Notes: generated by a model not told the origin, from the sequence alone. DNA of 64,000 nt from an uncultured Gemmatimonadales bacterium (GCA_963844035.1 CAWJMT010000014.1:9359-73358); one strand, 5' to 3'; positions 2,802 to 62,483 are shown, numbered from the stretch's first letter. A program made the numbers and translations.

Positions 2802-2880
2802 TGCCGCATGAGTGGCGCAAGCATATGGGCAACGACTACGTTACCCGAGGTCTCACCTTCCGGGCAAGCGGCCTAACGAC

Positions 2881-3963
2881 GTGAACTCGCAGACGCGCTT
2901 CAGCCTCGTCCTCGGCGGGGGCGGCATGAAGGGCCTCGCGCACATCGGCGTCCTCGAGGCGCTGTCGGAGCGCGGGCTCAAGCCCACGCGGGTGGTCGGG
3001 TCGAGCGTCGGCGCCCTCGTCGGCGCCGCGTGGGCCGCCGGGCGCAGCCCGGAGGTGTTGCGCGAGCTCGCCACCAATCTGCGGCGCAAAGACATCTTCG
3101 TCGTGGCACACAGCGACATGGCGTTCAAGCGCATGCGCTCTCCCGCCCTGTTCCGCCGCGAGCCGCTGGACGAGCTGCTCCACGAGCTGGTCGGCGACGT
3201 CACTTTCCGGCAGCTCAAGCGCCCGCTGACCGTCAACACGGTCGACATCAACTCCGGTATGCAGGTCTTCTGGGGCCAGCCGGGGCTGGACGACGTCCGC
3301 GTCGCCGACGCGGTGTTCGCGTCCTGTGCGATGCCGGGATACCTGCCGCCGCGGGAAATCCGCGGGCGCTTTTACTTCGACGGTGCCACGGTGGACAACT
3401 TGCCGGTGCGCACGGCCCGCACGGTCGACGTGGACCTGGTGATCGCGGTGGACGTGTCGGCCTCGAGCGCGCTGCGCGAGGACAAGCAGGACGAAGGGTT
3501 TGCCGCGGTGTTTGGGCGCGCCACCGAGATCGCGATGCATTCGGCGCTGGAGCTACGGCTGCAGACCTGGACCACACCCCCGATCTACTTCCTGCACCCC
3601 AGAGTCGAGCACATCTCCCCGTTTTCTTTCGACGACCTGCGCGAGCTGGTGGAAGAAGGTTACCGGGATGCGATGGCCGCCCTGTCGCACCCGGCCGATT
3701 GGCCCGGGCCGGGCGACGAGGGCGTGTATCCCAAGCGGCGGCTGATCGTGCGCGTGGATCGCGACCGCTGCATCGGTTGCGGCGCCTGCCTGGTCCACGC
3801 GCCGCCCGGCCTGTTCGTGCTCGATGCGCATGGGAAAGCAGCTGTGACGCGGCCGGAGCAGGTATGGTCGCCCATCGACGGCGGAGTGATCCGCCACTGC
3901 CCCACCTACGCAATCAGCGCGCGGCCCATTGCCGTCCCCGAGGCTGCCGGCGCGACCGGGTAG
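2881..3963 (+). CDS. Patatin-like phospholipase fused to a C-terminal ferredoxin-like Fe-S domain
   Basis: GGGGMKGLAHIG, GSSVG nucleophile elbow, DGA catalytic Asp motif; C-terminal DRDRCIGCGAC...HCPTYAI. Confidence 0.88.
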   Translation: MNSQTRFSLVLGGGGMKGLAHIGVLEALSERGLKPTRVVGSSVGALVGAAWAAGRSPEVLRELATNLRRKDIFVVAHSDMAFKRMRSPALFRREPLDELLHELVGDVTFRQLKRPLTVNTVDINSGMQVFWGQPGLDDVRVADAVFASCAMPGYLPPREIRGRFYFDGATVDNLPVRTARTVDVDLVIAVDVSASSALREDKQDEGFAAVFGRATEIAMHSALELRLQTWTTPPIYFLHPRVEHISPFSFDDLRELVEEGYRDAMAALSHPADWPGPGDEGVYPKRRLIVRVDRDRCIGCGACLVHAPPGLFVLDAHGKAAVTRPEQVWSPIDGGVIRHCPTYAISARPIAVPEAAGATG

Positions 3964-4006: not shown

Positions 4007-5296
4007 ATGGCCACCACAAATCGCCTCGCAAAACAGATTCTGAGTCGCGTCCTCGCCGACCGCGACCACGACACGGTCGCGGGCCAGCTGGCGCCGCGGT
4101 TGCCGGCGACCGATCCGCTGCCGCCGTCGATCCCGGCAAAGGACGACTACAGCCGCGAGGCGATGATGCTGCGGCGCGAGTTCCTCCGCTCGCGCGGGTT
4201 CGTCGTCCATCACCTCGCCGGTGAGGGCGACGGGATCGATCCGGCAAGCCTCACCGGGAATACCGAGTCGCTCGTCGGCTTCGCGCAAGTTCCCGTCGGC
4301 GTCATGGGTCCGCTCCGCATCAACGGTTCCGCCGCCCACGGGGACTTCTACGTCCCGCTGGCCACGACCGAGGGGGCACTCGTCGCGTCCTTCCAGCGCG
4401 GCGCGCGCCTCATCAGCGAATCCGGGGGCGCCACCGCGCTGTGTCTCACGGAGGCGGTCACGCGCGGACCGGCATTCGTCTTCAACACGACCATCGAGTC
4501 CGGCCGCTTTCTCGCGCATGTGCTCGACAGCGCCGACGACATTGGCCGCGCGGTCGAGAGCAGCTCGCGGTATGCCAAGCTGCTCGACCTCACCCCGTCG
4601 CTCGTCGGCAAGGAAGTCTTCATTCTCTTCCAGTTCTCGACGGGAGACGCAGCGGGTCAGAACATGGTGACGCTGGCGACGGAAGCGATCTGCCGGCAGC
4701 TGATCGAAGGATCGCCGGTCAAACCGGTCAGCTGGTTCGTCGAAGGAAACCTCTCGGGCGACAAGAAGGCGACGCACCTCGCGTTTCAGATGACGCGTGG
4801 CAAGCGCGTCGTCTCCGAAGCGATCGTGCCCGCCGCGCTGGTGCAGAAGGTCCTGCATACGACACCGCAGCAGATCAAGCGCTACTGGGAAGTCGCGTTG
4901 CTCGGCGGCCTGCAGAGCGGCTCGATCGGCATACAGGGTCACGTTGCCAACGGCATCACCGCGCTCTTCCTCGCGTGTGGTCAGGACGTGGCGTGCGTCT
5001 CCGAGGCCGCGGTCGGGCTCCTGCGCTTCGACGTCACCGATGCGGGAGACCTGTATATCTCGCTCACGCTGCCGACCGTCATGGTCGGCACCGTCGGCGG
5101 AGGGACCCACCTGCCGACGGCGCGCGAGTGCCTGGAGATGCTCGGCTGCTACGGCGCCGGGCACGCGAGGAAGTTCGCCGAGATTTGCGGCGCCACCGCG
5201 CTCGCGGGCGAGCTGTCGATCGCGGGTGCGCTCGCCGCGGGGGAGTTCAGCGCGGCCCACGCGACGTTCGGCAGGGCGGGACCAAAGCCGGCTTGA
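4007..5296 (+). CDS. Hydroxymethylglutaryl-CoA reductase-like enzyme (class I type)
   Basis: PLATTEGALVAS, TGDAAGQNM, GNLSGDKK, GQDVA, GTVGGGT, LAGELS and the C-terminal catalytic His (AAH). Confidence 0.9.
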   Translation: MATTNRLAKQILSRVLADRDHDTVAGQLAPRLPATDPLPPSIPAKDDYSREAMMLRREFLRSRGFVVHHLAGEGDGIDPASLTGNTESLVGFAQVPVGVMGPLRINGSAAHGDFYVPLATTEGALVASFQRGARLISESGGATALCLTEAVTRGPAFVFNTTIESGRFLAHVLDSADDIGRAVESSSRYAKLLDLTPSLVGKEVFILFQFSTGDAAGQNMVTLATEAICRQLIEGSPVKPVSWFVEGNLSGDKKATHLAFQMTRGKRVVSEAIVPAALVQKVLHTTPQQIKRYWEVALLGGLQSGSIGIQGHVANGITALFLACGQDVACVSEAAVGLLRFDVTDAGDLYISLTLPTVMVGTVGGGTHLPTARECLEMLGCYGAGHARKFAEICGATALAGELSIAGALAAGEFSAAHATFGRAGPKPA

Positions 5297-6384
5297 CGCC
5301 CGACGGCATCGAACAGCGCGCGCGGTTCGATTATGTCCGCTACGCGAACTGCTGGGAAGATGCGGACGTCCTCTGTCAGGCGCTCGAGCCCGGGCCCGGA
5401 AAGCGTATTCTCTCGATCGCCTCCGGCGGCGATAACAGCTTCGCGCTCGCCGCTGACGGCGCCAGCGTCGTCGCGGTCGACGTGAGCGACGCGCAGCTCG
5501 CGATGGTCGAATTGAAGCGCGCCGCCATTCGCCAGCTCGAGTACGACGCCCTGCTCGCGTTCCTCGGGCTTCGTCCGAGCGCCGAGCGCACGCACGCGTA
5601 TGCGAAGCTCGCACCGTCCCTGCCGCCAGGCGCGCGGGGGTTTTGGGACGCGCATCCCCGCGACATCCAAGACGGGATCGCACACGCGGGGAAGTTCGAA
5701 CGGTACTTCGCGACGTTCCGGCGGAGGATCGTGCCGCTCTTCCACACCCGTGGGACCGTCGCGCAATTGCTGGCGGAGAAACCACTCGCCGAGCGGCGCA
5801 CCTTCTACGATCGTACGTGGAACAACTTCCGCTGGCGCCTGATGTTCAAGGTCTTCTTCAGCCGACGCGTCATGGGTCTCTTGGGCCGCGACCCGGAGTT
5901 CTTTCGCTATGTTGAAGGCAGCGTCGCCGACCGGATTCTGCAGCGCGCCGAGTACGCCTTCACGGTGCTGCCCACGCACACGAATCCGTACCTCAACTTC
6001 ATTTTCACCGGCAGCTTCGGCCGGACGCTGCCGCGCTACCTGGATCGCGAACGCTTCGGCGCGTTGCGCGCAGGGATGGACCGCATCGAGCTGGTGCGCG
6101 GATCCGCGGAAGCGGTCGCCGCGACCCACGGACCCTTTGACGGGTTCAACCTGTCGGACATCTTCGAGTATCTCGATCCGCCCACCTGTGCCGCGATCTA
6201 CGGCTCCCTGCTCGCGTCGTCACGCCCGCACGCGCGTCTCGCGTACTGGAACATGCTCGTCCCGCGACGCCGGCCGGAGGAGTTCGTGGCACGCGTGCAA
6301 TCGCTCGATGCACGCGCCGACGCGCTGCTCGCGGTCGACCGCGCATTCTTCTATCGCGCGTTCGTCCTGGAGGAAGTGATGTGA
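5293..6384 (+). CDS. DUF3419 family protein (BtaA-like SAM-dependent 3-amino-3-carboxypropyl transferase)
   Basis: YANCWEDAD, SIASGGDN SAM-binding loop, GKFERYF, NPYL, FNLSDIFEY. The TTG start overlaps the upstream stop. Confidence 0.85.
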   Translation: MTPDGIEQRARFDYVRYANCWEDADVLCQALEPGPGKRILSIASGGDNSFALAADGASVVAVDVSDAQLAMVELKRAAIRQLEYDALLAFLGLRPSAERTHAYAKLAPSLPPGARGFWDAHPRDIQDGIAHAGKFERYFATFRRRIVPLFHTRGTVAQLLAEKPLAERRTFYDRTWNNFRWRLMFKVFFSRRVMGLLGRDPEFFRYVEGSVADRILQRAEYAFTVLPTHTNPYLNFIFTGSFGRTLPRYLDRERFGALRAGMDRIELVRGSAEAVAATHGPFDGFNLSDIFEYLDPPTCAAIYGSLLASSRPHARLAYWNMLVPRRRPEEFVARVQSLDARADALLAVDRAFFYRAFVLEEVM

Positions 6385-7716
6385 CCTGGCGGGACGACCT
6401 CGCGGGCGCGGCCCTCATTGCCGCGGTGCTCGCCATCGTGCTCATCCTGGCGGAGCTATGGGCTCGGGCGTGGCATGGCAAGCCGGAGCACACGCGCAAG
6501 CTGGTCCACCTGGGCGGCAGCGCGATCGGCGTGTTCCTGCCGCTGCTGGTGCACTCCGTCGCGGTGGCGTTTGTGCTGACGGGCTCGCTCTCGCTGCTGT
6601 TCTTCGCGGCGTCGCGCGGCAAGTGGCTCCGCAGCGTCGGCGCAATCGAGCGGTCGAGCCGCGGGAGCGAGTACTACCCGCTCGCGGTGTTTCTCGTGTT
6701 CGTGCTCGCCGAGGACGACTACTGGCGCTATCTGAGCTCGCTCCTGGTCCTGGGCGTCGCCGACGCGGGCGCCGCGCTCGTCGGCGGGGAATACGGGCGC
6801 ACTCGCTATGAGGTGGACGACGAGAGCAAGAGCGTCGAGGGCTCGCTGGTCTTTCTGGTCGTCGCGTTTCTGGCGATCCAGCTGCCGATGCTCCTGCTGA
6901 CCGATCTGCCCCGCCCCGACCGTCGTGCTCGCGTCGCTCCTGGTGGCGGTGGTCGTCACAGGTTTCGAGGCGGTATCGCTGCGCGGGGCGGACAACCTCT
7001 TCGTGCCAATCGCCGCGTGCGTGATTCTGGGCAAGATCACGGCGAAGCCGGTGGAGGAGATCGTGTTTCAGAACGTCAGCCTCATCGCACTCTGCACCGT
7101 GATCGGGGTCGGCGCGCGACACTTTCCGGGACTCAACGTCGGCGCCACAATTGCCGTCACGCTCTTCACGTACGGTCTGTGGTCGCTGGGGTCGCCGGTG
7201 TGGGCGCTGCCGGTGCTGATCGCCCTCGTGGCCATCGTGACCGCGCGCACCGAGCCATTCTCAGGTCGAGCAATCGGCGTGCGACCCGTCGTGCGCGCGA
7301 TTGTGCCGTTGTTTGCGATCCTCATCATCGCGAACACGTATGACGCAGTGGACTTCTGGTACGCTCCCTATCTCGGCGCAGTGGCGGCGATGACGGCGAT
7401 CGGGGTCGTCCACACAGGCGGTCAATGCACGCGGTCGCGCCTGCTCTCGTTGGGAGCGTGCGCAGCGATCGTCCTCATTCCCGCAGGTCTAGTGGTTTCG
7501 GCGCCGGCGTCGTCGCTTGTGGCGTTGGTCGCCGTGGCCGTGCTGGGGGGCGCCAGTGCCCTCGCGCTGAGAGCGCGCTACCCGTCCGCTGCGCGGCTGG
7601 GTAACGCGATCCCGGCGCTCGTCGCCATCGGGGCCGCTGGGATAGTCGCCCTCCTGGAATACCAGCGCACGATCCCGCCATGGATCATCGGGTTCGGTTT
7701 CCTCACGCGCCACTGA
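6381..7716 (+). CDS. CTP-dependent polyprenol/phytol/dolichol kinase-like membrane protein (SEC59/DGK1/VTE5 family); frameshift near 6915
   Basis: RKLVHLGG, ADAGAALVG...KSVEGS, then GADNLFVP in the second frame; many TM helices. Confidence 0.8.
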
Positions 7717-10328
7717 TCTCGATCGTGCCGGTCGAGCCGTCCATCGAGACGGTTTGGCCCGTCTTGAGGGTGGTGGTGAGGCCGGGGATGCCGACGATCG
7801 TGGGAATGCCCATCTCGCGCGCGACGATGGCGGAGTGTGACAGAATGCTTCCCCGCTCGATCAGGAGTCCCGATACGGACGGATAGAGCGGGACCCACCC
7901 CGGGTCCGTCCGGCCGGCGACGAGGATCTCGCCCGCGAGCTGCGCGTCGTCGGACGGCGTCAGGATCACCTTCACGCGATTGGTGACCTTGCCGGGCGAG
8001 CACGGAATTCCCCGCAGCACGCCATCCACCGGTACGACCGCCGCCGCACTCCGGCCTTTGAACCGGTTGCGGCTGTGCACCATGCCGAAGGTCTCGAACC
8101 GGTCGTCGGGCTCGGGCGCTGCCGCGCTGCGGTACCCGTCAAACTCGGCGCGCCGGAGCGACACCAGATCGCTCACCCGCGCGGTCACCGCGGTGCCCTT
8201 GATGAAGTCGAAGATCTCGTCGAGCGTGAGATAGAACACGTCGTCGCGCTGCTCGAGCGCGCCGGCCTGCACCAGGTGGGTGCCGAGCGATCGCACCAGC
8301 TCTCGCACGAGGCCGAAGATGCGCGTCCGGGCGAAGCGCATGTTCTCGCGGTTCTTCACGCCGAGTCGCGCGTTCTTCAACACGCGCTGAAACACGCGCC
8401 GCTTCCACCAGGACGGCAGCGCCGCTCTGGCTCGCGCTTCCGCGGCGGAGCGGATACCGGCTTCCCGGGACGTGATCGCGGCAGGATCCGCGCCCCCCTG
8501 CGATGTCACGTAATTCCGAATCACCTGGTAGGCGAAATCGGGCCGGTCGCGCAGCGTCGGCTCTTCGAGCTTCAGCTCGTTCATGCAGCGAAAGCCGTAC
8601 TCGTCGAGATAGTGCGCGAACGCCGCGCGAAACGTGCTGAATCGCGGGTCGGTGGTGGTGAGCCGGCCGATCTGCTCGAGCGGCGCGCTCGCGAACAGCG
8701 CTGCCAGCTCGGGGTCGGCGCGCACGTCGCGGGCAAGATCCATCAGGCGGAACGTCGGCTCGGTGCTGCGAATGCCGCCCTCGCCACAAATGAGATCGTT
8801 CTGCAACGACCCGCGTCGGGTCCCCGCACCACGAGGCGCACAGCTTCTTGAGCACGCCGTAGTGCATCATCACGAACAGATCGTTGATGATCGGCGCGCG
8901 CCACTGTTCGAGGATCTCCCGTTCGATGTCCGCATACAGCGCCATGAGCTCGTGGGGACGCAGCTCGGCGAAGTCCATCGCTGCCCAGCGGCGATAGTGC
9001 AACTCGAAATGCTTTTCGAAGCGTGACACGCGAGCGCGGATGCGGACGAAGTTCCAGGTCGAGCGGCCCAGGAGCCGCAGCAGCGCGGGCAGCTCGACGA
9101 AATACCGCCGCAGCGCCGAGGCGGGGACGGACGCTCCGGCTGATACGACTCCTTCACCCCCATCATCGATTCCATGAACTGCCGGTTGTACTCGAAACCC
9201 GGGAACAGCCGCAGCAACAGGTACCAGCTCCGCAGGTTGTAGTAGACGCGCCCGCGGATGAGCCCCAGCATGTTCTGATAGAGCGGTTCGCTCTGCCGGA
9301 TCGTGCCGGGGGCGATGCCCATCACTTCGGAGAAGCAGCGATACACCGTGGCGTAGGAACGCCGGATGACGCTGAACGTCAGCGGCGACGTCACGCCCGA
9401 GAAACTCTCGATGATGTTTGAGTTGTCCCACAGCAGGCCGTACCCCGCCGCTGGTCCGTACTCCTCGATGGTGGTGATCGGGCGCGTTTGGAGAATCGCC
9501 AGCTCCCCGCCGCGATCGATCGCGAACTCGATGTCCTGGGGCGCTCCGTACGCCTCCTCGATCCGCCGCGCCGTCTCGCTCAGCAGCCGGATCTGGGAGT
9601 CGGTGAGGCTCGCCTTCTCTCGGGAGTCCGCCGGCACCGGTTCCCGCGTCACACCCCCCTGCTTCGCGCGATCGAACACGAAACGCTCGCTCTTGTCCGC
9701 CACGACCGGCTCGATCTTCCCCGTCTGTTTGTCGACGGTGAACAGATCCGCGTCGAGACCGCCGCTCACCAGCCCTTCGCCCAGCCCGTACAGCGAGCTG
9801 ATGACAATGCGGCGGGTGTCGCCCGTGGTTGGTTCGGCCGTGAACACCACGCCACTCACCTCGGCGTCGATCATCTCCTGCACAACCACCGCCATCTCCA
9901 CGCCATCCAGCGGGAGGTGACGCGACTTCCGGTACGCCACGGCACGCTCGGCGAACGCGGACGCCCACACCCGCCGGATCGCGTCATAGAGCGCGTCGCG
10001 TCCTCGCACGTAGAGGTAGACTCTCGTGAATGCCGGCGAACGACTCACCGGTGGCGTCTTCACCGACCGCGGACGACCGGACCGCGACGAACGGGTCGCC
10101 CGGCAGGAAGTCGCTGTGGGCCTGCTCGATCGCGTCGCGCAGGGCCGGCGCCAGCGCCTCGCCCGCGGCGTGGGATCGCGACTGGTGAAACGCCGCCGCG
10201 GTAATCACATAGAAGGGGGGCACCCGACACCCAAGCCGCCGCAGCCGATCGAGATTCGCGGCCTTGCCTCCCACGATCGCCGGATCCGCCTTGCTGGAGT
10301 CACCGCACCGCCAGACCAGGGCGCTCAT
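7703..10328 (-). CDS. PEP-utilising dikinase-like enzyme with rifampin-phosphotransferase architecture (ATP-grasp, central domain, His swivel); frameshifts near 10020, 9130 and 8815
   Basis: VGGKAANL, VAVRSSAVGED, SFAG, QDIEFA/LQTRPIT, WDNSNIIESF, TDPGW and GSILSHSAIVAREMGIP, spread over four ORF fragments. Confidence 0.88.
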
Positions 10329-11281
10329 CGCTCGAACCCGTGCAGCCGTATCAATTCGATGGCCAAAGTGAGGTCGAAGGCAATCAGGTATATGCCGGCG
10401 TTCCGCTCCAACGCCTTGGCCGTGCGCGTCGAGGTTTGCAGACGGAAGCGAATGAAGGTGCCGAGCGTGACGAGGAAGAGCGCCACCACGGCGGCGTAGA
10501 ACCAGCCGCTCACGCCAATGAGGTAGCCGACGATCGAGACAAGCGTCGTGTCGATGAGCCGCAGCCCCAGGACAATCCAGGCGGCGCCGTAGGTGCCGAA
10601 GATCTTCGAGTACGAATCAAGTCCTTCGATCTCGTCCTCGGGCGCGCGAATCTTGCGCGATACCTCCACGTTGAAGGTGACGAAGAAGCCGACCATCGCG
10701 TAGAGCGCAAACACCAGCGGCGCCTGCCATGGCATCTGCCGCGTCGTGAAGCTGAACACCATAAGCGAGAGCAGCGGCATCAACAGCATGTGCGACGTCG
10801 CGTAGACCAGGAAATGCCTGCGCAGCCACTCGGCGGCGAAAAACTCCTTGAGCATCAGCAGCGAGAACACGAACGCGATCGCCAGCCCCGTGGTCGCCTG
10901 CGGTCCGGCGGCGAGCGCGAGCGCGAATTCCGCCGCGATCGCGACCCCGGCGAGGACCCGCAGGTCGGCCAGCGTGATGACGCCGCGCTGCAGCACGCGG
11001 TGGGGATGAAAGCGTGAGTCCTCGGCGAAATCCTTGTGCTCGTCGAACACGCGCAGGTGGAAGAAAAAGCACAGCAGCGTGAGCGCGCCGAGCAGGGAGC
11101 GTGCGGTGTAGCGCATCGGTTCGTCGGGATGCGTGAGCACCTTGGCGAGAAACTGGTTCGACGAGAAGTAGCTGATGATCAGCAGGACGTGCCCGAACAG
11201 TGGAAAGCGCTCGCGCAGGTACGCGCGCAAGCGCGTCAGGTACGGATCGGTACGGGCGACGGGTTGCGCCACGGCCGTCAT
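10325..11281 (-). CDS. UbiA-superfamily intramembrane prenyltransferase
   Basis: LRVFDEHKDFAED...PHRVLQRG acidic motif 1, EVSRK...EDEIEGLDSYS motif 2, multiple TM helices. The ATG overlaps the upstream stop (ATGA). Confidence 0.82.
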   Translation of the reverse strand: MTAVAQPVARTDPYLTRLRAYLRERFPLFGHVLLIISYFSSNQFLAKVLTHPDEPMRYTARSLLGALTLLCFFFHLRVFDEHKDFAEDSRFHPHRVLQRGVITLADLRVLAGVAIAAEFALALAAGPQATTGLAIAFVFSLLMLKEFFAAEWLRRHFLVYATSHMLLMPLLSLMVFSFTTRQMPWQAPLVFALYAMVGFFVTFNVEVSRKIRAPEDEIEGLDSYSKIFGTYGAAWIVLGLRLIDTTLVSIVGYLIGVSGWFYAAVVALFLVTLGTFIRFRLQTSTRTAKALERNAGIYLIAFDLTLAIELIRLHGFER

Positions 11282-12853
11282 CGGAGCGCTCCGTTCTGCA
11301 GCATCTGTCGCAGGCGCGGGTAGTCGATCTTGCTGTTGTGGCGCGGGTCGACGGGCAGCGCGGAGCGCGTCACGATGAGATCGTCCACGCGGAGCGGGCC
11401 GTTCGCGGCGAGGCGCGCCTCCACGTCCTTGGGAAGATCCGTGGCGTGTCGATTCGATCACGACCACGACCCGCTCTCCGAGGTTGGGATCCGGCATTCC
11501 CAGCGCCGCGATCCGCCGGATGCGCGCGTCGTCGCCCCGCGCCGCCTGCTCGATGAGCTGCGCATGCAGGTCCACGCCGGCCCGGCGGATGGTGGAATGC
11601 ACGCGACCGACCAGCCAGAAGCGTCCGCTGTCGTCGAAGTATCCCGTATCACCCATCCGATGCCACACCGTCCCCTCACCGTCCCTGACCTTGTTCTCAG
11701 CGAACGCGGTCTCGTCTCCGGCGTAGTCGCGGCATACATGCGGCCCCGCGACCAGCAGCTCGCCGATCGCGCCGGGCGCCGCGTCCGCCGGACGTTCCAG
11801 CGGGCCCCGCGTGATGCGCACGACGCGTGTGCGCACGGCGCGCACGGGCGTGCCGACGCAGTAGCCCGGTTTGCCTCTACCCGCGCCAAGACGCTCCTCG
11901 GCGGTCATGCGCGCCACCGGTTCTGCTTCGCTCGACCCATAGGCGACAACGATCTCCGTCCGCGGGAACGCCTCCCGCCACTGGCGCAACTGTTCATCGC
12001 GCACGGGAGCGCCTCCCGTGACGAGGCGACGAAGCGGGGGAGGCGGTTCACCGGTGGCGCGCAGGTGAGCCGCGACGAGGTCGAACAGAGGCGGCGACGC
12101 CGCCGCGGTCGTCACCCCGAACCGGCGAACGTGCGCGAGCACCAGGCGAGGGTCGGCGTGCGCCACGCGACGCAGGTTGACCGGCGGAATCACCGTCGTG
12201 ATGCCGCTCGCGAGGTTGCTCAGCGCGAAGATGGGGAACGTGGTGAGGTCCACGTCGCCGGGCTGAGCCGGGAACTCCTCGCGAATCACGTGGTGTTGGG
12301 CGGCGAGAATCGCGTGCGTCCGATTCACCCCCTTCGGCGTGCCGCTCGAACCCGTCGTGTAGGTGATGAGCGCGGGGGCGTCGGGCAGGACATCCGCTGC
12401 CGTGCCACGTCCCCGAAGATCCCGAAAACGAAGCCGGCCCGCCAACCCCGCGCCGAAACCATCGGTCGTCACCGCCAGACGTACGCGGCGGAGCTCGGGC
12501 GCAAACAACCGCAACAAATGGGCTCGCGGCGTCCCGACGAACAGCGCCGGCGCCGCGGCGCCGGCCTGTCGGGCGATCTGACGCAATGAGACCCACGGAT
12601 CCACGAAGACGGCGACGCCGCCCGCCGCGAGCGTGCCAAGCACCGCGACGTAGAGCTGCGGCGACATCGGGAGCATGAACACCGCGCGCTCTCCGGCCTG
12701 CAATCCATGCGCGACGAGCCCGCCGGCGAACGACTCGACCGCCCGCCGGAGATCGCCGAAGCAAACGTCATCTCCTTTCGCCGACACGAAGGCGAGCGCC
12801 GTCTCGTGCCGCTCCGCGGCCTCGAAGAAGAGTTGCACTACGTTCGCCGTCAC
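11278..12853 (-). CDS. AMP-dependent acyl-CoA ligase (OleC-like); frameshift near 11445
   Basis: YTTGSSGTPKG, YGSSEAEP, HRMGDTG; the shifted-frame C-terminus LPVDPRHNSKIDY stops at 11278. Confidence 0.88.
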
Positions 12854-13884
12854 GCTTCACTCCACTCATACAGCACGTAGCGCCGGAAGACGGTTCCGTG
12901 TCCACCGTCCAACGCCTGCGAGCGATTGTCGTCCCGCATCAGCGCGTGGTTCCCCGCACGCAGGCCTTTCCCTATGGCATTGGAGTACACGCGGTGTGAG
13001 AGCGCGGCGACGACGCCCGCCCGGCGCCATGCGGCGCGGACGCCGATCGTCTTGTAGTGCACCGCCGGCAGGTGGGGATCGGCGTAGGCGAACACAAAGC
13101 CGACCTCGCTGCCGTCCGGCGCCGTCGCGAACACGACGAGCTCCGGGTCGAGCAACCGCTCTAGCCCCGAGTACAACGCGAGAAACTCCTCGCGCGGAAT
13201 CGGTGAGTACAGAACGGCCTCGCGAAAGATCTCGGAAGAAATGTCGTGCACCACTTCGAGCTCGTGACGAAGCCGACTCCGGTCCAACCCGCGAACCCGC
13301 ACGCCTCGCGAGGCGCTGCGCTGGACGCCCGATGCCAGATTCGGCAGCAGCACCGCCACATCGTCGATCCACTTCGAGCTGTACGACTCGAGACGTCGAA
13401 AGCCGGATCGCTCCCACAGCTCCTGGTAGTACGGCGGATTCCAGGGCTCCAACGGAAATGGCGGACGCACGAATGGCCCCGCGTTCACGCGGTACCGATG
13501 CCAGGTGTCTCCATCCATGGGTCCCACGATTCGCTCGGCGCCCTGCTCGTGTAGCCACGCGATGGCCTGGCGGAAGAGCGCTGCGGCAGCATCCTGGTGC
13601 TGGATTGCTTCGAAGAATCCGAGAATGCCGTACGGCGTGCCGTTGTCGGCGCGTAGCTGCGGTGAGAGACGGGCCACCACGCGCCCGATTGGCTCGCCGC
13701 GCTCGAGCGCGACAAAGAGGCGCTGACCCGGCTGGTACGCGGCGCGGCTCAGGTTCCGCTCGACCGACGCGCGCACCGGAGCGGTCCCCACCATCTGATC
13801 GGCATAGATTCCGTCGGCCACGGCGTGAAAGGCCTCGCGGCCCGCCGGGTCGGCGGTAACGTCAGCGACGCTGACTGCTGCCAT
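12850..13884 (-). CDS. GNAT-fold N-acyltransferase (YghO-like)
   Basis: GRVVA...GFFEA, IVGPM, NPPYY...GF, KTIGV...WRRAGV acyl-CoA-binding loop. Confidence 0.75.
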   Translation of the reverse strand: MAAVSVADVTADPAGREAFHAVADGIYADQMVGTAPVRASVERNLSRAAYQPGQRLFVALERGEPIGRVVARLSPQLRADNGTPYGILGFFEAIQHQDAAAALFRQAIAWLHEQGAERIVGPMDGDTWHRYRVNAGPFVRPPFPLEPWNPPYYQELWERSGFRRLESYSSKWIDDVAVLLPNLASGVQRSASRGVRVRGLDRSRLRHELEVVHDISSEIFREAVLYSPIPREEFLALYSGLERLLDPELVVFATAPDGSEVGFVFAYADPHLPAVHYKTIGVRAAWRRAGVVAALSHRVYSNAIGKGLRAGNHALMRDDNRSQALDGGHGTVFRRYVLYEWSEA

Positions 13885-13935: not shown

Positions 13936-15108
13936 TCAGGACAACTCGTCTTCGATCGCGCGCAGATCCCGCACCACGCGTTCCCAGTTGTAGTACGTCT
14001 CGACCGCGCGCCGTCCCGCAGCCCCGACTCGGGCCGCGAGCGCCGCATCCGAAAGCAGCCGGCCGACCACCTCGGCGATGGCCGCGGGATCCTCAGGTGG
14101 AATGAGAAACCCGGTCTCGCCATCTCGCACCGCATCTGGAATCCCGCCCGATCTCCCCGCCACCACCGGCAGCCCGCACGCTGAGGCCTCGACCAGGGAA
14201 ATCCCGAACCCCTCGACGCCCAGACGCTCGGCACGGCGTGAGGCACCGACATAGACCGACGCGAGATTATAGAGGGCAGGCAGGTCGCGTTCGCTTACCT
14301 CGCCCAGAAAGCGCACGCGGTCCGCCACGCCGAGCTTGTGGGCCAGCTTCTTGAGCTTGTCGCGTTCGGGTCCCTTCCCCGCCACCGCGTAGTGCACGTC
14401 GGGAGCAAGAGCCACAATCGCCGGCAGCGCGCGCAGCACCATGTCCACGCCCTTGTGCGGCTCGAGCCGCGCCACCGTCAGCAGCCAGCGCACGCCGCCG
14501 TCCTCGAGCTCGAACCGATTGCGCAGCTCCGTCGGGTCCAGACCGGGGCGGAACCGCTCGGGGTCGGTGCCAAGGTGGACCACACGCAGCCGCCCGCTGT
14601 GGGCGTCGAGACCGAGCTCCCCCAGCACTGCGAGCGCGAGCTCACGCGTCCACTCGCTGATCGCGATCAACACAGCGGCGCCGCCGAAGATCGCCCGCGC
14701 CGTCCGCCGTTTGAATGCGGAACGGATTTTGTGCTGCTCGCTGAGCAGGTCGGCGCCGTACAGGAAGAGGCTGTAGGGGACGCGGAGGCGTTCGTAGGTC
14801 CAGCGGGCCGCGTATCCGGCCGGTTTGACATTGGCGCAGTGCACGAAGCGGACGTTGTGTTGCCGGGCGAGGCTCGTCGCGCGGCGCGACCAGAGCAACA
14901 GTCCCGGGACCGTCTTGGCCGTGCGGCGGCCGATCGCCAGACGATCGACCACGGCGTTGAACGTACCGTCCACTTCCTGGGCATCGGAATCCGCCGGCGT
15001 GGAAACGATCAACTCACCGCGGGGATAGCGGCGGGCCAGCTCACCGTGCAGGCGGGCAATGCCCCCGCCCATGGGCGGAAAGTCCTGCGCGAGAAGCAGC
15101 GTCGTCAT
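13936..15108 (-). CDS. Glycosyltransferase family 4 (PimB-like)
   Basis: DFPPMGGGI, TVARLEPHKG, EGFGISLVEASACGLPVV. Confidence 0.9.
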   Translation of the reverse strand: MTTLLLAQDFPPMGGGIARLHGELARRYPRGELIVSTPADSDAQEVDGTFNAVVDRLAIGRRTAKTVPGLLLWSRRATSLARQHNVRFVHCANVKPAGYAARWTYERLRVPYSLFLYGADLLSEQHKIRSAFKRRTARAIFGGAAVLIAISEWTRELALAVLGELGLDAHSGRLRVVHLGTDPERFRPGLDPTELRNRFELEDGGVRWLLTVARLEPHKGVDMVLRALPAIVALAPDVHYAVAGKGPERDKLKKLAHKLGVADRVRFLGEVSERDLPALYNLASVYVGASRRAERLGVEGFGISLVEASACGLPVVAGRSGGIPDAVRDGETGFLIPPEDPAAIAEVVGRLLSDAALAARVGAAGRRAVETYYNWERVVRDLRAIEDELS

Positions 15109-15167
15109 TGTGCCGAATCCTACCGGCACGGTTGCCGCGGAGCAACGCTTGCAGTTCCTTTGATCCG

Positions 15168-16001
15168 GTGAAGGCCAAAGAATTCATTTACCTGCTCGGC
15201 CTCAAACCCAAACCGAAGACGTATGGGTTCGTGATCGAGGCGCACGACCTTCCCCGCGAAGGCCGGCTCGACGTCGCCCGGTGGGCTCACCCGGGAGCCT
15301 ATCGGGTGGCGCCCGCTCAGCTGCAGGCGGTCGTCGATCAATTGCGCCGCTTTCTGCGCCCCGGCGACGTCGCGATCGACATCGGGGCCCACGCCGGCGA
15401 CACCTCGATTCCCATCGCGCTCGCGGTCGGACCGGCGGGAGTCGTGTTGGCCCTCGAGCCCAACCCGTACGTGTTTCCCGTACTGGAGCAGAACGCCGGT
15501 CTCAACCCGGCCAAGACCACCATCATCCCCCTGATGTTCGCCGCCATGCGCGCCGACGGGCGGTACGAGTTCCAGTATGGGGAAGAAGGCTATTGCAACG
15601 GCGGGTTCCACGAAGGCATGAGCAAGTGGCTGCACGGCAGCGCGTTCAAGGTGCAGGTCGAAGGCCGCAACGTGCAGGAGTTCCTCGCCCGCCATCATCC
15701 CGACCTCATTCCGCGGCTGCGCTTCATCAAGATCGACACGGAAGGGTTCGACCTGGCGGTGCTCGAAACCCTCGAGCCCTTGGTCCGAGCGCAGCGACCC
15801 TTTCTCCAGGTAGAAATGTTCAGTCTCCGGAAGTCCGACCCGGCGTATCGGCGCAAGCTGTTCGAATTTCTCACCCGCCTCGAGTACGACGTGCACCGCA
15901 TGGAGAGCAACGAGAACTACATGGGTGAGCGGATCACCGCGGAGAATTTGATGCGGTGGAACGTGTTCGACGTGTTCTGTCTCCCGCGCGCCGCCGCCTG
16001 A
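15168..16001 (+). CDS. FkbM family methyltransferase
   Basis: IDIGAHAG, ALEPNP, FIKIDTEGFD. Confidence 0.88.
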   Translation: MKAKEFIYLLGLKPKPKTYGFVIEAHDLPREGRLDVARWAHPGAYRVAPAQLQAVVDQLRRFLRPGDVAIDIGAHAGDTSIPIALAVGPAGVVLALEPNPYVFPVLEQNAGLNPAKTTIIPLMFAAMRADGRYEFQYGEEGYCNGGFHEGMSKWLHGSAFKVQVEGRNVQEFLARHHPDLIPRLRFIKIDTEGFDLAVLETLEPLVRAQRPFLQVEMFSLRKSDPAYRRKLFEFLTRLEYDVHRMESNENYMGERITAENLMRWNVFDVFCLPRAAA

Positions 16002-16004
16002 CCG

Positions 16005-16958
16005 ATGCACATCGCCGTGTTTTCACACTACCGCCTCCCCGTCAAAGGCTATGGCGGCACCGAACGCGTCGTGGTGGCGATGGTGCGCGCGCTCGCCGCA
16101 CTGGGCCATCGCGTGACGCTCGTCGCGGCTCCGGGGACGCGGGTCCGCGAGGCCAAGGTCGTGGAGGTACCGATCCCGACCCTCACCGGCTCGGAGATCG
16201 ATCTCGCGACCCTCCTGCCGCCGGGCGTGGACATGCTGCACGCCTTCTATCCATTGAAGCGCTCGCCCTCGCATCCGTTCGTGCAGACCCTGGAGGGGAA
16301 TCTGCGCGCCGGCGCTCCGGTCCCGCCCAACAACATCTTTGTGTCGCGGGACCACGCGCGCCGCTCGGGGCGCGAGGTCTTCGTCTACAACGGCCTCGAT
16401 CCGGCCGACTTTGTGTTCCAGTCCAAGAAACTGGACTACGACCTGTTCCTGGGACGGTTGCACCGCGCCAAGGGATACGGCTGGGCGATCGAAGCGGCGA
16501 AACGCACGGGACGGCGCTTGTTACTGGCCGGCGGCTGGCGTCCGAGTCTGCGGCGAAACATCCGATTCGTGGGCGAGGTGGACGGACGCCGTAAGGCGGA
16601 GCTGCTGGCGGGGGCGCGCTGCCTGTGGATGCCGGCGCTCTGGCCGGAGCCGTTCGGGCTCACCACGATCGAGGCGCTGTTCTCGGGGACTCCGGTGCTC
16701 GGCACCCATTGGGGAGCGCTGCCCGAAGTCGTGAGCCCGTCGGTGGGCGCGCTGTGTGATACGGTGGACGAGCTGATTGCCGCGGTGCACACGATTCACA
16801 CGCGCGATCCCGCCGCCTGTCGCGCGTACGCGGAGCAATACTTCAGTCACCTGGTGATGGCGGAGGAATACCTGCGGATGTATCGCAGCCTGCTCGACAC
16901 CGGGTCGCTCCCACCGGGGCGGGTCACGCCCCACGCGCCTACCGCAACGTCACCGTGA
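16005..16958 (+). CDS. Glycosyltransferase family 4
   Basis: YGGTERVV, FLGRL..AKG, EPFGLTTIEALFSGTPV. Confidence 0.88.
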   Translation: MHIAVFSHYRLPVKGYGGTERVVVAMVRALAALGHRVTLVAAPGTRVREAKVVEVPIPTLTGSEIDLATLLPPGVDMLHAFYPLKRSPSHPFVQTLEGNLRAGAPVPPNNIFVSRDHARRSGREVFVYNGLDPADFVFQSKKLDYDLFLGRLHRAKGYGWAIEAAKRTGRRLLLAGGWRPSLRRNIRFVGEVDGRRKAELLAGARCLWMPALWPEPFGLTTIEALFSGTPVLGTHWGALPEVVSPSVGALCDTVDELIAAVHTIHTRDPAACRAYAEQYFSHLVMAEEYLRMYRSLLDTGSLPPGRVTPHAPTATSP

Positions 16959-17898
16959 GCAGCTCCGCCAAGCGGTGCGCCCAGGTGTGCTCCCGCAGCG
17001 CGCGCTCGCGCGCGGCGGCGGCGAGCGAGCGCCGCAGCGAGGCGTCGGCGAGCAGGGCGCGCGCCTGGTCCCGCAGCTCCGCCGGGCTCGTGTAGAGCGC
17101 GATCTCACGTCCCGGCGCAAAGTGACGCGCGATGTCCGATTTGGCGTCCGAGAGCTGGGGGGTACCGACGGCCGCAAGCTCGAACACCCGCATGTTCGCG
17201 CCCGTGCCGTAGCGCGCGGGGTCGGCTCCGTCGCCGAACTGCTGATGAACATTGATGCCCACCGTCGCGCCCGCGAGCGCGTACACCAGGTCGTCACCGT
17301 ACACCGGCCCGTTCGGCCACCCCGGGCCCCACAGCGCCAGGCCCTGATCGGCGACCGCGTGGAGCACGCGCTCGCGCTGCGGGTCCCGGGTGCCCACGAA
17401 CGCCAGCGCGGCGCGCCAGCGCGCGCCCGGGTTCACGGGTCGCAGGAACTCCGGGTCGCAGCCAAACGCGAGATAGTGGGCGCGCACCCCCACTCGGGCG
17501 TAGCGGTCGAGGCTCGCGGAGTCATGGGTGAAGAAGCAGTCGTACGCCGGCGCGAGCTTGGTCGAGAGGACCAGCGCGTGGGGATCATCGGGAAACCAGT
17601 TGACCCAGCGCGCCCGGGTGTCGCGCCGCAACGTCGCAATGTCCGCGGGATCGAGCCCGGCGCCCTTGAAGACCAGCACGACGTCTACCGGGCCCCGCGC
17701 CAACAGGGCCGCCAGACGCGCCCGCAGCGGCCGGCGCACGATCGCGTTCCACCCGGTGAGGCGCTCTTCGCAGCGTTGCACTTCACATCCGAGCGCGCCA
17801 AGGGCGGCGGCGAGGGCGAGGCCGCTGCGGTGATAGCGGCGGTTGAACGCCGCCACCAGAACCACCCGCAGCCCGGCGAACGGGCGGGGGGGGGTCAT
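16939..17898 (-). CDS. Glycosyltransferase, CgeB/Glyco_trans_1_2-like
   Basis: NWFPDDP, AFVGT, NMRVFELAAVG, EHTWAHR. Confidence 0.82.
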   Translation of the reverse strand: MTPPRPFAGLRVVLVAAFNRRYHRSGLALAAALGALGCEVQRCEERLTGWNAIVRRPLRARLAALLARGPVDVVLVFKGAGLDPADIATLRRDTRARWVNWFPDDPHALVLSTKLAPAYDCFFTHDSASLDRYARVGVRAHYLAFGCDPEFLRPVNPGARWRAALAFVGTRDPQRERVLHAVADQGLALWGPGWPNGPVYGDDLVYALAGATVGINVHQQFGDGADPARYGTGANMRVFELAAVGTPQLSDAKSDIARHFAPGREIALYTSPAELRDQARALLADASLRRSLAAAARERALREHTWAHRLAELLTVTLR

Positions 17899-18758
17899 AT
17901 CTCGACGTAGTTGCGGTATTCGAACAGGCGGGCGCCGGTCAGTCGCTCGATCCAATCGGAGAGGTAGAGGCGCACGTGGTTGAGCCGGAAGCGGCGCGGC
18001 CCGACAGAGGTCCCGGATGTCCCGGCTTGGCGCGCCGCGATCCACTCTTCCGCAGCGCGCGGGTGGGCCCCGGTGAAGCGGCGCAGCAACGGCCCCCACT
18101 CGAGCGCCGGCTGGGCGGCGCGCGCTTCCAGCCGGTCAGCGGCCTCCGTGAAAATCTCCTGCGCCGCCACGAGCTTCTCGATCCTCGAACGGGGTGGCCG
18201 CGCCCAGCCATAGTGGAACATGCGGGCGCCGGTGACCCGCGCCCTCGGACGGCGGTCGCCGCCGGCCCGGAACCCCTGCGCGTCCCAATACGACCGGATG
18301 TCCCGGCCCAGCGGGACGACGCGGACCTCGCGGCGGTACCAGTGCCGGTCGGTGGCGACGGTGTCGAAGTCGCCGTAGAAGTGGACATAGTCCACGAGCA
18401 ACCCCTCCACTCGCGGATCGCCATCCGCCGCGCGCACGGCGTCTCGCAGGACGGGCACACCAGTCTCGTGCAGCACCTCGTCCGCCTGGATGTACACGCC
18501 CCAATCCCCACGACATGCCGCCATCGCGCGATTGGTCTCGACCGAGAGGGCTTCGCTGCCGCGGGAAAAATCCCACACCGTGTCGAGGATGCGCACCCGC
18601 GGGTCGCCGATCCCGGTGATCAGGTCGCGGGTGCCGTCGTCCGATTTCCCGACGTTGACCACCACCTCGTCGCACAGCTCGAGAATCGAGCGCACGGCGG
18701 GCACGATCGGGTACTCGAGACGGACGGCGTTCCGGACGATCGTGAAGCCCGACAACAT
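17895..18758 (-). CDS. Glycosyltransferase family 2
   Basis: SGFTIVRNA, SDDGT, YIQADE, FHYGWAR. Confidence 0.85.
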   Translation of the reverse strand: MLSGFTIVRNAVRLEYPIVPAVRSILELCDEVVVNVGKSDDGTRDLITGIGDPRVRILDTVWDFSRGSEALSVETNRAMAACRGDWGVYIQADEVLHETGVPVLRDAVRAADGDPRVEGLLVDYVHFYGDFDTVATDRHWYRREVRVVPLGRDIRSYWDAQGFRAGGDRRPRARVTGARMFHYGWARPPRSRIEKLVAAQEIFTEAADRLEARAAQPALEWGPLLRRFTGAHPRAAEEWIAARQAGTSGTSVGPRRFRLNHVRLYLSDWIERLTGARLFEYRNYVEI

Positions 18759-18760
18759 GG

Positions 18761-20563
18761 TCAGACCTGGAACTGCATGTCGTAGAACCGGCGGTAGAGA
18801 CCCCCCGCCGCGAACAGGGCCTCGTGGTTGCCGCGCTCGACGATCCGGCCGTCGGCCAGCACGACGATCAAATCGGCATGGCGCACGGTCGCCAGGCGGT
18901 GGGCGATCACCAGCACCGTGCGGTGCGCCATCAGTCGGTCGATCGCCTCCTGCACCAGACGTTCCGACTCCGTGTCGAGCGCGCTCGTGGCCTCGTCGAG
19001 AATAAGGATCGGGGGGTCGCGCAGCAGCGCCCGCGCAATCGCGATGCGCTGCCGCTCGCCACCCGAAAGCCGCGTGCCACGCTCGCCCAGGATCGTCTCG
19101 TAACCGTTGGGGAGCTGCCGGATGAAGTCGTGCGCGTTCGCCGCCTGGGCGGCGGCTTCGACCTGCGCCGGCGTGAAGTCGCTCCGGCCGTACGCGATGT
19201 TGGCGAACACCGACGCGTTGAGGAGGATCGTCTCCTGCGAGACGATGCCCATGAGGCCGCGCAGGCTCTTCCGGGTGAACTGGGTGATGGGGACGCCGTC
19301 CACCAGAATGGCGCCACCTCCAGGCTCGTAGAAGCGGGGCAGCAGATCCACCAGCGTGGTCTTGCCGGCCCCGGATGGCCCGACGACGGCCACCACTTGC
19401 CCACGGCGCATGTCCAGGTCGATGTCCTGGAGCGCCGGGGCATCGCCGTTGTAGGAGAACGACACCCCCCGGTACTCGATCCGGTGCTCGAAGCGCGCCG
19501 GCCCTTCACCCGGACGGTCGCGCTCGTCATCCGCCAGCTCGAGGACCTCGAACACGCGGTCCGCCGCCGCCAGCGCTCCCGCCATGACGGTGGGATAGTT
19601 GGCGGCCGATTTCACCGGTGACATGAGCCGCAGCGCCACCGCCACGAACGCGATCAGCACCTCGGGCCGGAGCACCGCGGCAGGGCCGAGCGCGAGCTTC
19701 GTCCCGATCGAGAACACCACCACGACGACGAGGCCGGCGAATATCTCGCTCACCGGGCTCGTGAGCTGCGCGTAACGCTGTGCGCGCATCACGCCCCTGC
19801 GATAGCGGTTGGCGAGCCGCCGGAAGCGGTCCGCCTCGAAGGCTTCGGCGACGTAGGCGCGCACCAGCTTGATCGACCCCACCAGCTCGCTGACCATGCT
19901 CGTCAGCTCGCCACGGTCATCCGCCTGCTCGCGTGAGCGCCGGCGGACCTTCCCAACGATCGGCCGGATGATGAGCGCCAGGAGGGGCGCGCACACCAGC
20001 GCGACCAGCGTGAGGCGCCACGACAGGCTCACGAGAATCGTCACGTACACGATGATCAGGCTCAGGTTCTGCAGCAGCGAGGCGAGGGCGGCGGTCACCG
20101 CGCCCTTGACCTGGTCGGTGTCGTTGATGAGCCGTGCGAGCAGCTGCCCGCCCCGCGTGCGCTGGAAGAAGCTCAGGGGCAGCGTCTCGAGGTGCTCGAA
20201 CAACGCGACCCGCAGATCGCGCACCACGCCCTCCTGGATCGCGACGCTGAACAGCGCCGCGGTATAGGCGAATACGTTCTTGAGTACCAGCGCGGCCACG
20301 AGGATGAACACAACGTTGCGGAGGGCGACGCCGGGCGCCGCGCCCGAGATCCACGGACCTGCCACGGAGGCGAGCATCCGCTCGGCGAACGACGCGCCAT
20401 CGACGGGCAACGCTTCTCTGCCGAACAGCGTGCGCAGGAAGGGGATCACGAGCACGAACGTCACGCCGTCCAGCAGCGCGGCTGCGAGCGTGGCCCCGAT
20501 GTTGGCAGCGAACAGGAGAGAATAGGGACGGAGCTGCCGGAGGAGACGGGCGCCGCGGCCCAT
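18761..20563 (-). CDS. ABC transporter ATP-binding/permease, MsbA-like
   Basis: N-terminal TM domain; GPSGAGKTT, LSGGERQR, ILDEATSALD; LPS gene context. Confidence 0.9.
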   Translation of the reverse strand: MGRGARLLRQLRPYSLLFAANIGATLAAALLDGVTFVLVIPFLRTLFGREALPVDGASFAERMLASVAGPWISGAAPGVALRNVVFILVAALVLKNVFAYTAALFSVAIQEGVVRDLRVALFEHLETLPLSFFQRTRGGQLLARLINDTDQVKGAVTAALASLLQNLSLIIVYVTILVSLSWRLTLVALVCAPLLALIIRPIVGKVRRRSREQADDRGELTSMVSELVGSIKLVRAYVAEAFEADRFRRLANRYRRGVMRAQRYAQLTSPVSEIFAGLVVVVVFSIGTKLALGPAAVLRPEVLIAFVAVALRLMSPVKSAANYPTVMAGALAAADRVFEVLELADDERDRPGEGPARFEHRIEYRGVSFSYNGDAPALQDIDLDMRRGQVVAVVGPSGAGKTTLVDLLPRFYEPGGGAILVDGVPITQFTRKSLRGLMGIVSQETILLNASVFANIAYGRSDFTPAQVEAAAQAANAHDFIRQLPNGYETILGERGTRLSGGERQRIAIARALLRDPPILILDEATSALDTESERLVQEAIDRLMAHRTVLVIAHRLATVRHADLIVVLADGRIVERGNHEALFAAGGLYRRFYDMQFQV

Positions 20564-55891: not shown

Positions 55892-56173
55892 ATGGTTGAA
55901 TTTACTGAAGAACAGGAACGTGCAATTAAGGACCGGGAACAGAAAGCAACCGAAGCAGCAGAACACCGTCTTGCATTTGCCCAGGCGTTCCGGTTGGCGT
56001 TGCCGTACCTTGAAGGACTTTCCGATCAGGTTAACCCGGAGAACGGGCAGATAATCAAGCGGGGGGCAATCAGTCCCTACATTGTCGAAGCCTTCCGGGA
56101 TGAATGCAATAAGGTTATTGTCAAACTGTTCCCGCAACCGGTACCGGCAGAGGAGAAGAACCCGGAGGAATAA
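55892..56173 (+). CDS. Hypothetical protein (93 aa)
   Basis: Clean ATG-TAA ORF with protein-like composition, after an AT-rich promoter-like tract. Confidence 0.65.
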   Translation: MVEFTEEQERAIKDREQKATEAAEHRLAFAQAFRLALPYLEGLSDQVNPENGQIIKRGAISPYIVEAFRDECNKVIVKLFPQPVPAEEKNPEE

Positions 56174-56176
56174 CCT

Positions 56177-57129: not shown

Positions 57130-57132
57130 TGA

Positions 57133-58008: not shown

Positions 58009-58037
58009 CATAGGAATACTTCAGCCAATTCATTCAT

Positions 58038-62474: not shown

Positions 62475-62483
62475 GATAATTCC

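Follow-up and report, generated by a model that had tools for sequence, protein, structure and literature searches.

An apparently undescribed lipid pathway in a conserved, patchily distributed seven-gene cluster

What do seven tightly coupled genes, divided between two operons that run into each other, make together? The question is raised by positions 4007..13884 of a 64,000-nucleotide (nt) stretch of DNA from an uncultured Gemmatimonadales bacterium (GCA_963844035.1 CAWJMT010000014.1:9359-73358; the whole stretch is called the window here), whose host belongs by its named homologues to the Gemmatimonadota. The cluster is made up as follows.

4007-5296, plus strand: HMG-CoA_red family, FcrA-type reductase (PF00368, E 2.8e-106)
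5293-6384, plus strand: DUF3419/BtaA-like S-adenosylmethionine (SAM) enzyme, predicted 3-amino-3-carboxypropyl transferase (PF11899, E 5.3e-62)
6381-7716, plus strand: CTP_transf_1-like membrane protein resembling lipid-alcohol kinases, with an extra C-terminal membrane domain (assigned by motifs; frameshift at ~6917)
7703-10328, minus strand: phospho-His dikinase of RPH/PigC architecture (PF01326 and PF00391; frameshifts at ~10019, ~9124 and ~8814)
10325-11281, minus strand: divergent membrane transferase of the UbiA superfamily (PF01040, E 1.1e-10)
11278-12853, minus strand: OleC-family adenosine monophosphate (AMP) ligase (PF00501, E 4.7e-53; frameshift at ~11430-11450)
12850-13884, minus strand: GNAT N-acyltransferase related to bCerS-like proteins (PF00583)
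7703..7716: the plus and minus operons overlap by 14 nt at their 3' ends, as seen in the sequence

A sequence-only reading of the window had described this convergent layout, the seven families, the five 4-nt overlaps and the overlapping tails, and all are present (the internal junctions are TTGA, GTGA, GTGA, ATGA and ATGA). The seven genes form one conserved, patchily distributed and apparently undescribed lipid pathway. Judged from the sequences, its product is likely to be an ether-linked membrane lipid made from a fatty alcohol, likely capped with N-acylated homoserine.

The conservation is seen in two samples. GTDB genomes were scanned with a DUF3419 alignment, giving at least 580 stretches that encode relatives, of which the best 80 were kept; many of these loci are cut by contig ends. 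All seven genes are present at 27 of the 80 DUF3419-anchored loci, or at 32 if a formyltransferase is counted in place of the GNAT, and the individual genes are found at 71 (kinase), 62 (dikinase), 58 (UbiA), 55 (ligase), 47 (GNAT), 38 (reductase) and 6 (formyltransferase). By their record titles the loci come from Gemmatimonadota, Acidobacteriota, Planctomycetota, Verrucomicrobiota, Bacteroidota, Melainabacteria, Chloroflexota, Spirochaetota, Bacillota, Desulfobacterota and others. The second sample, free of DUF3419 anchoring, consists of 47 loci found via UbiA alone, namely all new matches in Gemmatimonadota, Spirochaetota and Bacteroidota and 27 of 36 places in Cyanobacteriota (the nine top-scoring were left out); one of the 47 had already been sampled via DUF3419 (L194 = L068). 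Swaps and co-occurrence were counted over 130 loci. The whole set also forms one operon in records of Brevibacillus laterosporus and Roseinatronobacter, and in the cultured strains Dyadobacter soli (L055) and Rubritalea spongiae (L056).

Within phyla the spread is patchy. The cluster is present in two of 61 relatives, the host included, and a UbiA profile (centres excluded) finds matches in 11/300 Gemmatimonadota, 30/300 Cyanobacteriota, 5/230 Spirochaetota and 4/240 Bacteroidota genomes, and in 0/240 in each of two further phyla. The UbiA subfamily itself comprises at least 1,525 clusters at 50% identity (E up to 1e-30). Near some of these loci we noted further genes. An Aas-like lysophospholipid-recycling gene is convergent to a six-gene cluster in Melainabacteria-type loci (L066, L070, L072, L073, L076 and L081); 1,156-amino-acid proteins with AMP domains beside FcrA-less Melainabacteria loci were considered as carboxylic acid reductases and rejected, since by their sequence they resemble Aas (MFS-PlsC-ligase). 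An open reading frame (ORF; L003:19135-20088) that follows a P450 gene, at a distance of about 2 kb from the Brevibacillus cluster, resembles what we take to be ETX/MTX2-type insecticidal toxins.

The invariant part of the cluster is the pair of UbiA and dikinase. A dikinase is found in the same locus at 104 of 108 UbiA loci, adjacent and on one strand in 99 of the 104, and the pairing holds in 44 of the 47 loci found via UbiA alone. The co-occurrence across phyla that the sequence-only reading had looked to is borne out, both by this pair and by the complete sets, and it is far above chance. The FcrA and the kinase dependent on cytidine triphosphate (CTP) are dispensable or replaceable; the core is UbiA plus dikinase. 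On the simplest view the pathway is modular: a supply module (ligase, FcrA and any lipid kinase) would provide alkyl phosphate, the fixed core would form alkyl diphosphate and consume it, and exchangeable head modules, in the window homoserine with N-acylation, would finish the product. Our best reading of the whole is that an acyl-CoA is reduced to an alcohol, which is phosphorylated to an alkyl phosphate and then to an alkyl diphosphate, that UbiA forms an ether from this, and that the head is an N-acylated homoserine. As an entire chain of steps on sequence grounds we put it forward tentatively, at somewhat below an even chance. The order acid, acyl-CoA, alcohol, phosphate, diphosphate and UbiA transfer had already been suggested from the window; it fits the gene swaps and active-site residues described below, with the chain now specified as fatty.

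The nature of the chain is indicated by the reductase, which had been called HMGR-like. The protein has the class I HMGR fold: the catalytic residues E559, K691, D767 and H866 are kept in 37, 37, 37 and 36 of 37 sequences, and R590, D690 and K692 are also kept. This fold and these residues are what could be expected if the enzyme were a true HMG-CoA reductase and the cluster boosted or replaced isoprenoid synthesis, but such a role is highly improbable. S684 is replaced by an acidic residue in 37/37 (E30/D7), position 735 is Lys in 0/38 and L862 is Phe in 36/37; the protein scores below the TIGR00533 cut-off (335 versus 441.8 bits); no HMG-CoA synthase was found in the host genome (84% complete), which has DXR; and mevalonate genes do not recur in the surroundings of cluster loci. 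S684 and K735 are described in the available text of PMC9500038 as the HMG carboxylate-binding residues of class I HMGR, and the accessible part of PMC11948995 lists the same three differences (S684, the carboxylate-binding Lys and a bulky residue at L862) between FcrA and HMGR; its 'Lys795' is taken here as Lys735, following PMC9500038. Pb-FcrA, as reported there, reduces long acyl-CoA (14 or more carbons, with NADPH) but not HMG-CoA. With all three published hallmarks, the cluster 'HMGR' is by its residues an FcrA-type fatty acyl-CoA reductase, with a predicted activity, that would reduce acyl-CoA to fatty alcohol with NADPH, as the other FcrA tested in that paper does. Because the reductase is of FcrA type, the chain is probably straight and fatty, not isoprenoid.

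The cluster enzymes share the catalytic Glu/Lys/Asp/His, the change of S684 to Glu, the lost carboxylate-binding Lys and the bulky L862 position with the FcrA proteins of Ca. Promineifilum breve and Natronomonas pharaonis, as far as these are described in PMC11948995. However, they lack a Lad domain and form a distinct subfamily (E-G-N-L-S-G-D-K-K versus E-S-N-F-A-T-D-K-K), and their neighbours are the kinase, dikinase and UbiA and not the wax synthase, AGPS or PlsC of that account, the main text of which nowhere mentions UbiA. Stand-alone FcrA paralogues also have Glu for S684, and the idea that this residue binds the amine of an amino acid was dropped because the change is common to them. 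Of 43 genomes whose locus lacks the cluster reductase, four encode it on a different contig; a further 20 gave other FcrA-type genes only, and 19 gave no such gene. In Thermoanaerobaculia and Holophagales genomes (among G061-G077 and G099) there are two to four FcrA-type genes per genome, and the cluster is often divided into a DUF3419-kinase half and a GNAT-ligase-UbiA-dikinase half.

The alcohol would next be phosphorylated by the membrane kinase. Its description as polyprenol-kinase-like depends on its motifs. E-x2-RK-x2-H, D128, G135, KS-x-G and E/G-x-DN are invariant or nearly so in 65 homologues, to be set beside RK-x2-H, D-x2-A-x3-G and KS-x-EG, which we take to be the reference motifs of the CTP-dependent dolichol, phytol and Dgk1 kinases. 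Nine of the 65 homologues match PF01148 (CTP_transf_1); the window protein itself has no Pfam match and gave no PDB or relevant NCBIfam match. The kinase slot is filled by three unrelated families, the CTP-type kinase at 89 of the 130 loci, a DAGK at 11 and an APH/EcKL kinase at three (the DAGK and APH/EcKL profiles were built from the same loci as were counted), and the CTP-type kinase never shares a locus with either of the others. Two Spirochaete genomes encode a fusion of FcrA with an APH/EcKL kinase. Such swaps, and the fusion, suggest that the slot may supply an alkyl phosphate.

With another enzyme to phosphorylate the alcohol, the dikinase is available for a second phosphorylation, which would give the alkyl diphosphate. 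A model of the intact orthologue at locus L005 (pLDDT, a per-residue model confidence, of 91) matches RPH (5HV1, E 7.8e-41), and the equivalents of RPH K22, R117, R666, E667 and H825 are kept, in the three-domain phospho-His architecture. In the acceptor pocket an invariant Arg stands at the positions of RPH M673 (50/50) and K670, which would suit an anionic acceptor; this pocket and that of UbiA were judged from alignments only. The roles of these residues, including substrate contact by M673 and K670, are those given in the available portion of PMC4844700. The RPH described there and PigC/RedH share with the cluster enzyme the succession of ATP-grasp, substrate-binding and C-terminal His-swivel domains. 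However, identity is only ~20-23%, Arg replaces M673 and K670, the cluster dikinase is always beside UbiA, and the pieces of the window protein score 31, 163 and 146 bits against a curated rph cut-off of 999 and are also far below the PigC cut-off.

The step proposed for UbiA is the weakest. The UbiA model (pLDDT 96) matches ApUbiA (Z 21.5), DGGGP synthase (Z 20.2) and, at rank 6, the decaprenyl-phosphate enzyme DPPR synthase (Z 17.4), and the closest solved sequence is DGGGP synthase. The first motif, R-x2-DE-x-KD-x3-D, is intact, its D, E, D and D being conserved in 145-149 of 149 representatives. The second is E-x2-RK, without the first two Asp of D-x2-D-x3-D: the first Asp is Lys in 57/57, the second is mostly Ala, Ser or Thr and the third is Glu. 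The Arg-Lys suggests that the chemistry may differ from that of known UbiA enzymes, which use allylic or anomeric diphosphates.

What the core makes is suggested by loci in which it stands with other partners. In variants that have other genes in place of the BtaA-like one, the UbiA-dikinase pair occurs with CarS (L179, L180 and L190) or with CdsA, Psd and a PssA-like transferase (L173, L174 and L177); at L193, a full cluster, it is accompanied by CdsA and a CDP-alcohol transferase. An association with CarS or CdsA suggests that the core product is a lipid like phosphatidic acid, and hence an ether on a glycerol-phosphate-type acceptor. UbiA would thus move the chain to such an acceptor to give an ether analogue of phosphatidic acid, mirroring the action of archaeal DGGGP synthase on prenyl chains. 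The likeness to ether-lipid synthesis in archaea, where DGGGP synthase is followed by CarS and these by serine transfer and a decarboxylation, extends from the closest solved sequence and the Foldseek match of UbiA to the CarS or CdsA/PssA/Psd genes that the cluster variants carry. However, the second Asp motif has become Arg-Lys, no GGGP synthase or prenyl synthase recurs at cluster loci, and the donor apparently comes from a fatty alcohol via two kinases. That this UbiA subfamily and dikinase constitute an unknown bacterial route to the ether bond, in which an alkyl diphosphate made from a straight-chain fatty alcohol undergoes non-allylic displacement onto a glycerol-type backbone, in the archaeal manner but with bacterial chains, and the product receives interchangeable heads (N-acyl or N-formyl homoserine, CDP-serine/ethanolamine, possibly phosphonate), is possible though doubtful.

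The non-allylic displacement would be avoided if the alkyl phosphate were the acceptor and the dikinase made a small diphosphate donor, for example a sugar 1-diphosphate, with UbiA joining the two to give a phosphodiester lipid, much as mycobacterial DPPR synthase joins PRPP and decaprenyl phosphate. The cluster UbiA has a single acidic motif and several invariant Lys/Arg, a pattern that we take to resemble that of DPPR synthase, and the latter is among the structural matches to the model. However, it ranks below ApUbiA and DGGGP synthase, its sequence (Rv3806c) gave no profile match to the cluster UbiA at E up to 1, and no sugar-modifying genes recur in the cluster loci. We regard this arrangement as unlikely.

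Ordinary UbiA carbocation chemistry could operate if the chain were allylic, either a 2-alkenol from an enoyl-CoA or an isoprenoid alcohol from a prenoyl-CoA, and the two kinases formed a prenol-salvage module. Such a chain agrees with known UbiA chemistry and with the likeness, presumed from motifs, of the CTP-type kinase to phytol and dolichol kinases; the first Asp-rich motif of UbiA is intact, and some variants have desaturase or diiron genes. However, prenyl diphosphates need no salvage in a host with DXR in which, at 84% completeness, no HMG-CoA synthase was found, and the Phe at L862 is a bulky residue of the sort proposed, in the available text of PMC11948995, to select against branched chains in FcrA. 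An allylic chain is distinctly unlikely.

In the preferred ether route, a phosphate would be lost through an enzyme outside the cluster, and the BtaA-like enzyme, judged by its family, would then add homoserine from SAM. Its DUF3419 domain (PF11899, 210.6 bits) has the family's SAM-binding motif in common with BtaA of the BtaA/BtaB route to the betaine lipid DGTS, as far as that route is described in PMC10685587. However, it is only 22-27% identical to canonical btaA-type genes, and BtaB is missing from 127 of 128 cluster loci, the other having a weak match to a BtaB-like partner; ten of ten canonical control loci have one. None of these ten controls has another cluster gene, and some lie beside PhoH or alkaline phosphatase genes. 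The host genome has only short, weak methyltransferase matches. Nocuolin was considered as a precedent for DUF3419 and set aside, the available text of PMC9486936 naming neither DUF3419 nor BtaA, and PDB sequence searches with the kinase, GNAT and DUF3419 proteins gave nothing informative.

The amine of the head group may then be N-acylated by the GNAT or N-formylated by a formyltransferase. A formyltransferase with an Asn/His/Asp motif replaces the GNAT at seven loci, the GNAT is present at 82 and none of the 130 has both; six of the formyltransferase genomes were searched and gave no cluster-type GNAT. The GNAT accompanies amine-bearing head modules, whether BtaA-like, Psd or, at one locus, pepM/ppd, and is absent from two CarS-only loci. 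The pepM/ppd locus (L178:6984-9021) carries a PEP mutase gene and a phosphonopyruvate-decarboxylase-like gene, divergent from UbiA and with the dikinase and GNAT nearby, so that a phosphonate head is possible there. The window GNAT is 30% identical (E 3e-18) to a host paralogue on contig C37, between SPT-like and NAD-epimerase genes, and its profile gives full-length matches (E 5e-61 to 6e-42) to GNATs beside SPT-like and epimerase genes in three genomes, the host with its contig C37 among them. The spt-bCerS-cerR genes are the bacterial ceramide synthase set in the accessible part of PMC11087976, and the cluster GNAT is homologous to bCerS, the comparison being with GNATs of spt-like loci and not with the Caulobacter protein itself. 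However, neither spt nor cerR recurs among the neighbours of cluster loci, and in the host the sphingolipid locus has a copy of its own. That trio (C37:212318-215605) suggests that the host also makes sphingolipids.

The AMP ligase would open the pathway by making the fatty acyl-CoA. Its best NCBIfam family is PRK09274 (362 bits on the truncated piece), shared with the OleC beta-lactone synthetases, as is the C-terminal motif, which we take to be of OleC type and which 34 of 53 ligases carry. However, the OleC cut-offs are not reached (235 and 205 versus 900 and 850 bits on the truncated piece), and no oleA, oleB or oleD is found at cluster loci.

The ligase is also central to a different view of the head genes, in which the product is an exported amphiphile rather than a lipid of the bilayer: the BtaA-like enzyme would add homoserine straight to the fatty alcohol, the amine would be acylated or formylated, the OleC-like ligase would activate the homoserine carboxyl to form an amide or lactone, and the dikinase would be a PigC-like condensing enzyme. 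FcrA and DUF3419 are single ORFs of 826-835 amino acids at two loci (L036:8648 and L155:15513), the ligase is kept in 7/7 formyltransferase loci and is absent from three Psd variants that also lack DUF3419, the OleC-type motif has just been mentioned, MMPL-type exporters occur in 23/130 loci, and a formyl cap adds no lipid tail. However, six of the seven formyltransferase loci have FcrA, which itself needs acyl-CoA, and the lipid kinase at most loci and the UbiA-dikinase pair with CarS or CdsA are left unexplained. An amide extension may have a precedent in BACys: by our arithmetic (mass 205.064) its head-group ion, C7H13N2O3S+ (PMC11181052), is the sum of aminocarboxypropyl and cysteine less water, and on this basis BACys may arise by addition of cysteine to a BtaA product. 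No connection of BACys to the cluster was found, a cluster-type gene being present in one of 261 genomes of the BACys class, and the distant DUF3419 genes of that class (L203-L212), tried as such a link, are ordinary btaA-btaB pairs. We consider the amphiphile an improbable product, though one to keep in mind.

Several points weigh against the ether route that we prefer. We know of no precedent for transfer by UbiA of a saturated chain from a diphosphate, and displacement at a saturated primary carbon is chemically hard; Arg-Lys takes the place of the second Asp-rich motif in 147-148 of 149 UbiA representatives (150 listed). The cluster has no phosphatase. Sixteen database proteins are natural fusions of ligase and UbiA; these, like the FcrA-DUF3419 ORFs of L036 and L155, hint that the steps may follow another order. 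All the DAGK loci come from one phylum sample and hence represent few independent events. The CTP-type kinase was not found in nine of ten genomes tested, and L016, L084, L062 and L065 have no substitute kinase in the locus. For 19 of the 43 genomes the search gave no FcrA, of whatever type; one of these is the complete Lentisphaerae chromosome that contains L039, and the source of the alcohol there is unexplained. Most of the readings considered have in common a lipid derived from a fatty alcohol and bearing an N-capped amine.

The broken state of three genes in the window probably reflects assembly errors. The intact locus L005 has the same gene order and ~61-85% protein identity per aligned segment, and relative to it the kinase, dikinase and AMP ligase genes contain five frameshifts. 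Assembly error is likely because close relatives carry compensating indels, because a tyrS gene on the same contig is also frameshifted and because rpoB and gyrA, on other contigs of the host genome, are intact. The indels were seen in low-depth short-read contigs at 8814 (two runs), 9119 (one run) and 6914/6918 (one run), and thus cover three of the five sites; tyrS (window 29-~900) is shifted near 800, its typical C-terminus resuming in another frame. A single ORF of 842 amino acids that joins the AMP ligase to UbiA in the window was rejected as a fusion, being an artefact of the ~11430-11450 frameshift. Elsewhere in the host, the 3' part of rpoC is present twice, with one copy broken (contigs C10, C18 and C31), by misassembly or contamination.

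No tRNA was found in the window and the GC content of the cluster (0.673) equals that of its flanks, so that nothing points to a recent island. Near the end of the window, at ~56000-64000, GC drops from ~0.68 to 0.51-0.55, and this part is likely to be an island. A gene fusing patatin phospholipase and ferredoxin domains (2812-3963, plus strand) lies 43 nt 5' of the reductase on the same strand, without recurrence among the 80 loci anchored on DUF3419. Immediately upstream of the minus operon, at 13936-20563, glycosyltransferases, an FkbM methyltransferase and an ABC exporter resemble a surface-polysaccharide locus that is not recurrent with the cluster. On host contig C37 (220645-224000) a gene that we take to be like the RuBisCO large subunit lies beside transaldolase-like and other sugar-phosphate genes, so that carbon fixation is possible.

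The claim that the pathway is uncharacterised agrees with the literature: full-text searches, outside which lay most subscription papers and the FcrA supplement, found no paper on this gene set. One hit, PMC10134865, was a false match in a reference list only, and the available part of PMC6107057 contains nothing on the cluster. DUF3419 itself is named in six papers, PMC7923214 and PMC10685587 among them. For every enzyme a relative is known, and FcrA has been published, whilst the combined pathway is apparently new; the system does not belong with the mevalonate or betaine-lipid pathways, with rifampin resistance or with the synthesis of ceramides or olefins. According to the available text of PMC11948995, a wax synthase is lacking for many FcrA genes, which must feed other pathways, and the cluster is a concrete candidate for what they feed. 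The synthesis of non-isoprenoid alkyl ether lipids in bacteria is still poorly understood (PMC11181052). If the proposed route is true, it would widen the chemistry known for the UbiA and phospho-His dikinase families, and would provide a new class of lipid and a gene marker for ether lipids in geochemistry. The pathway is directly testable, since cultured strains carry all seven genes as a single operon, and on the rival readings too it is an undescribed pathway present in more than ten phyla.

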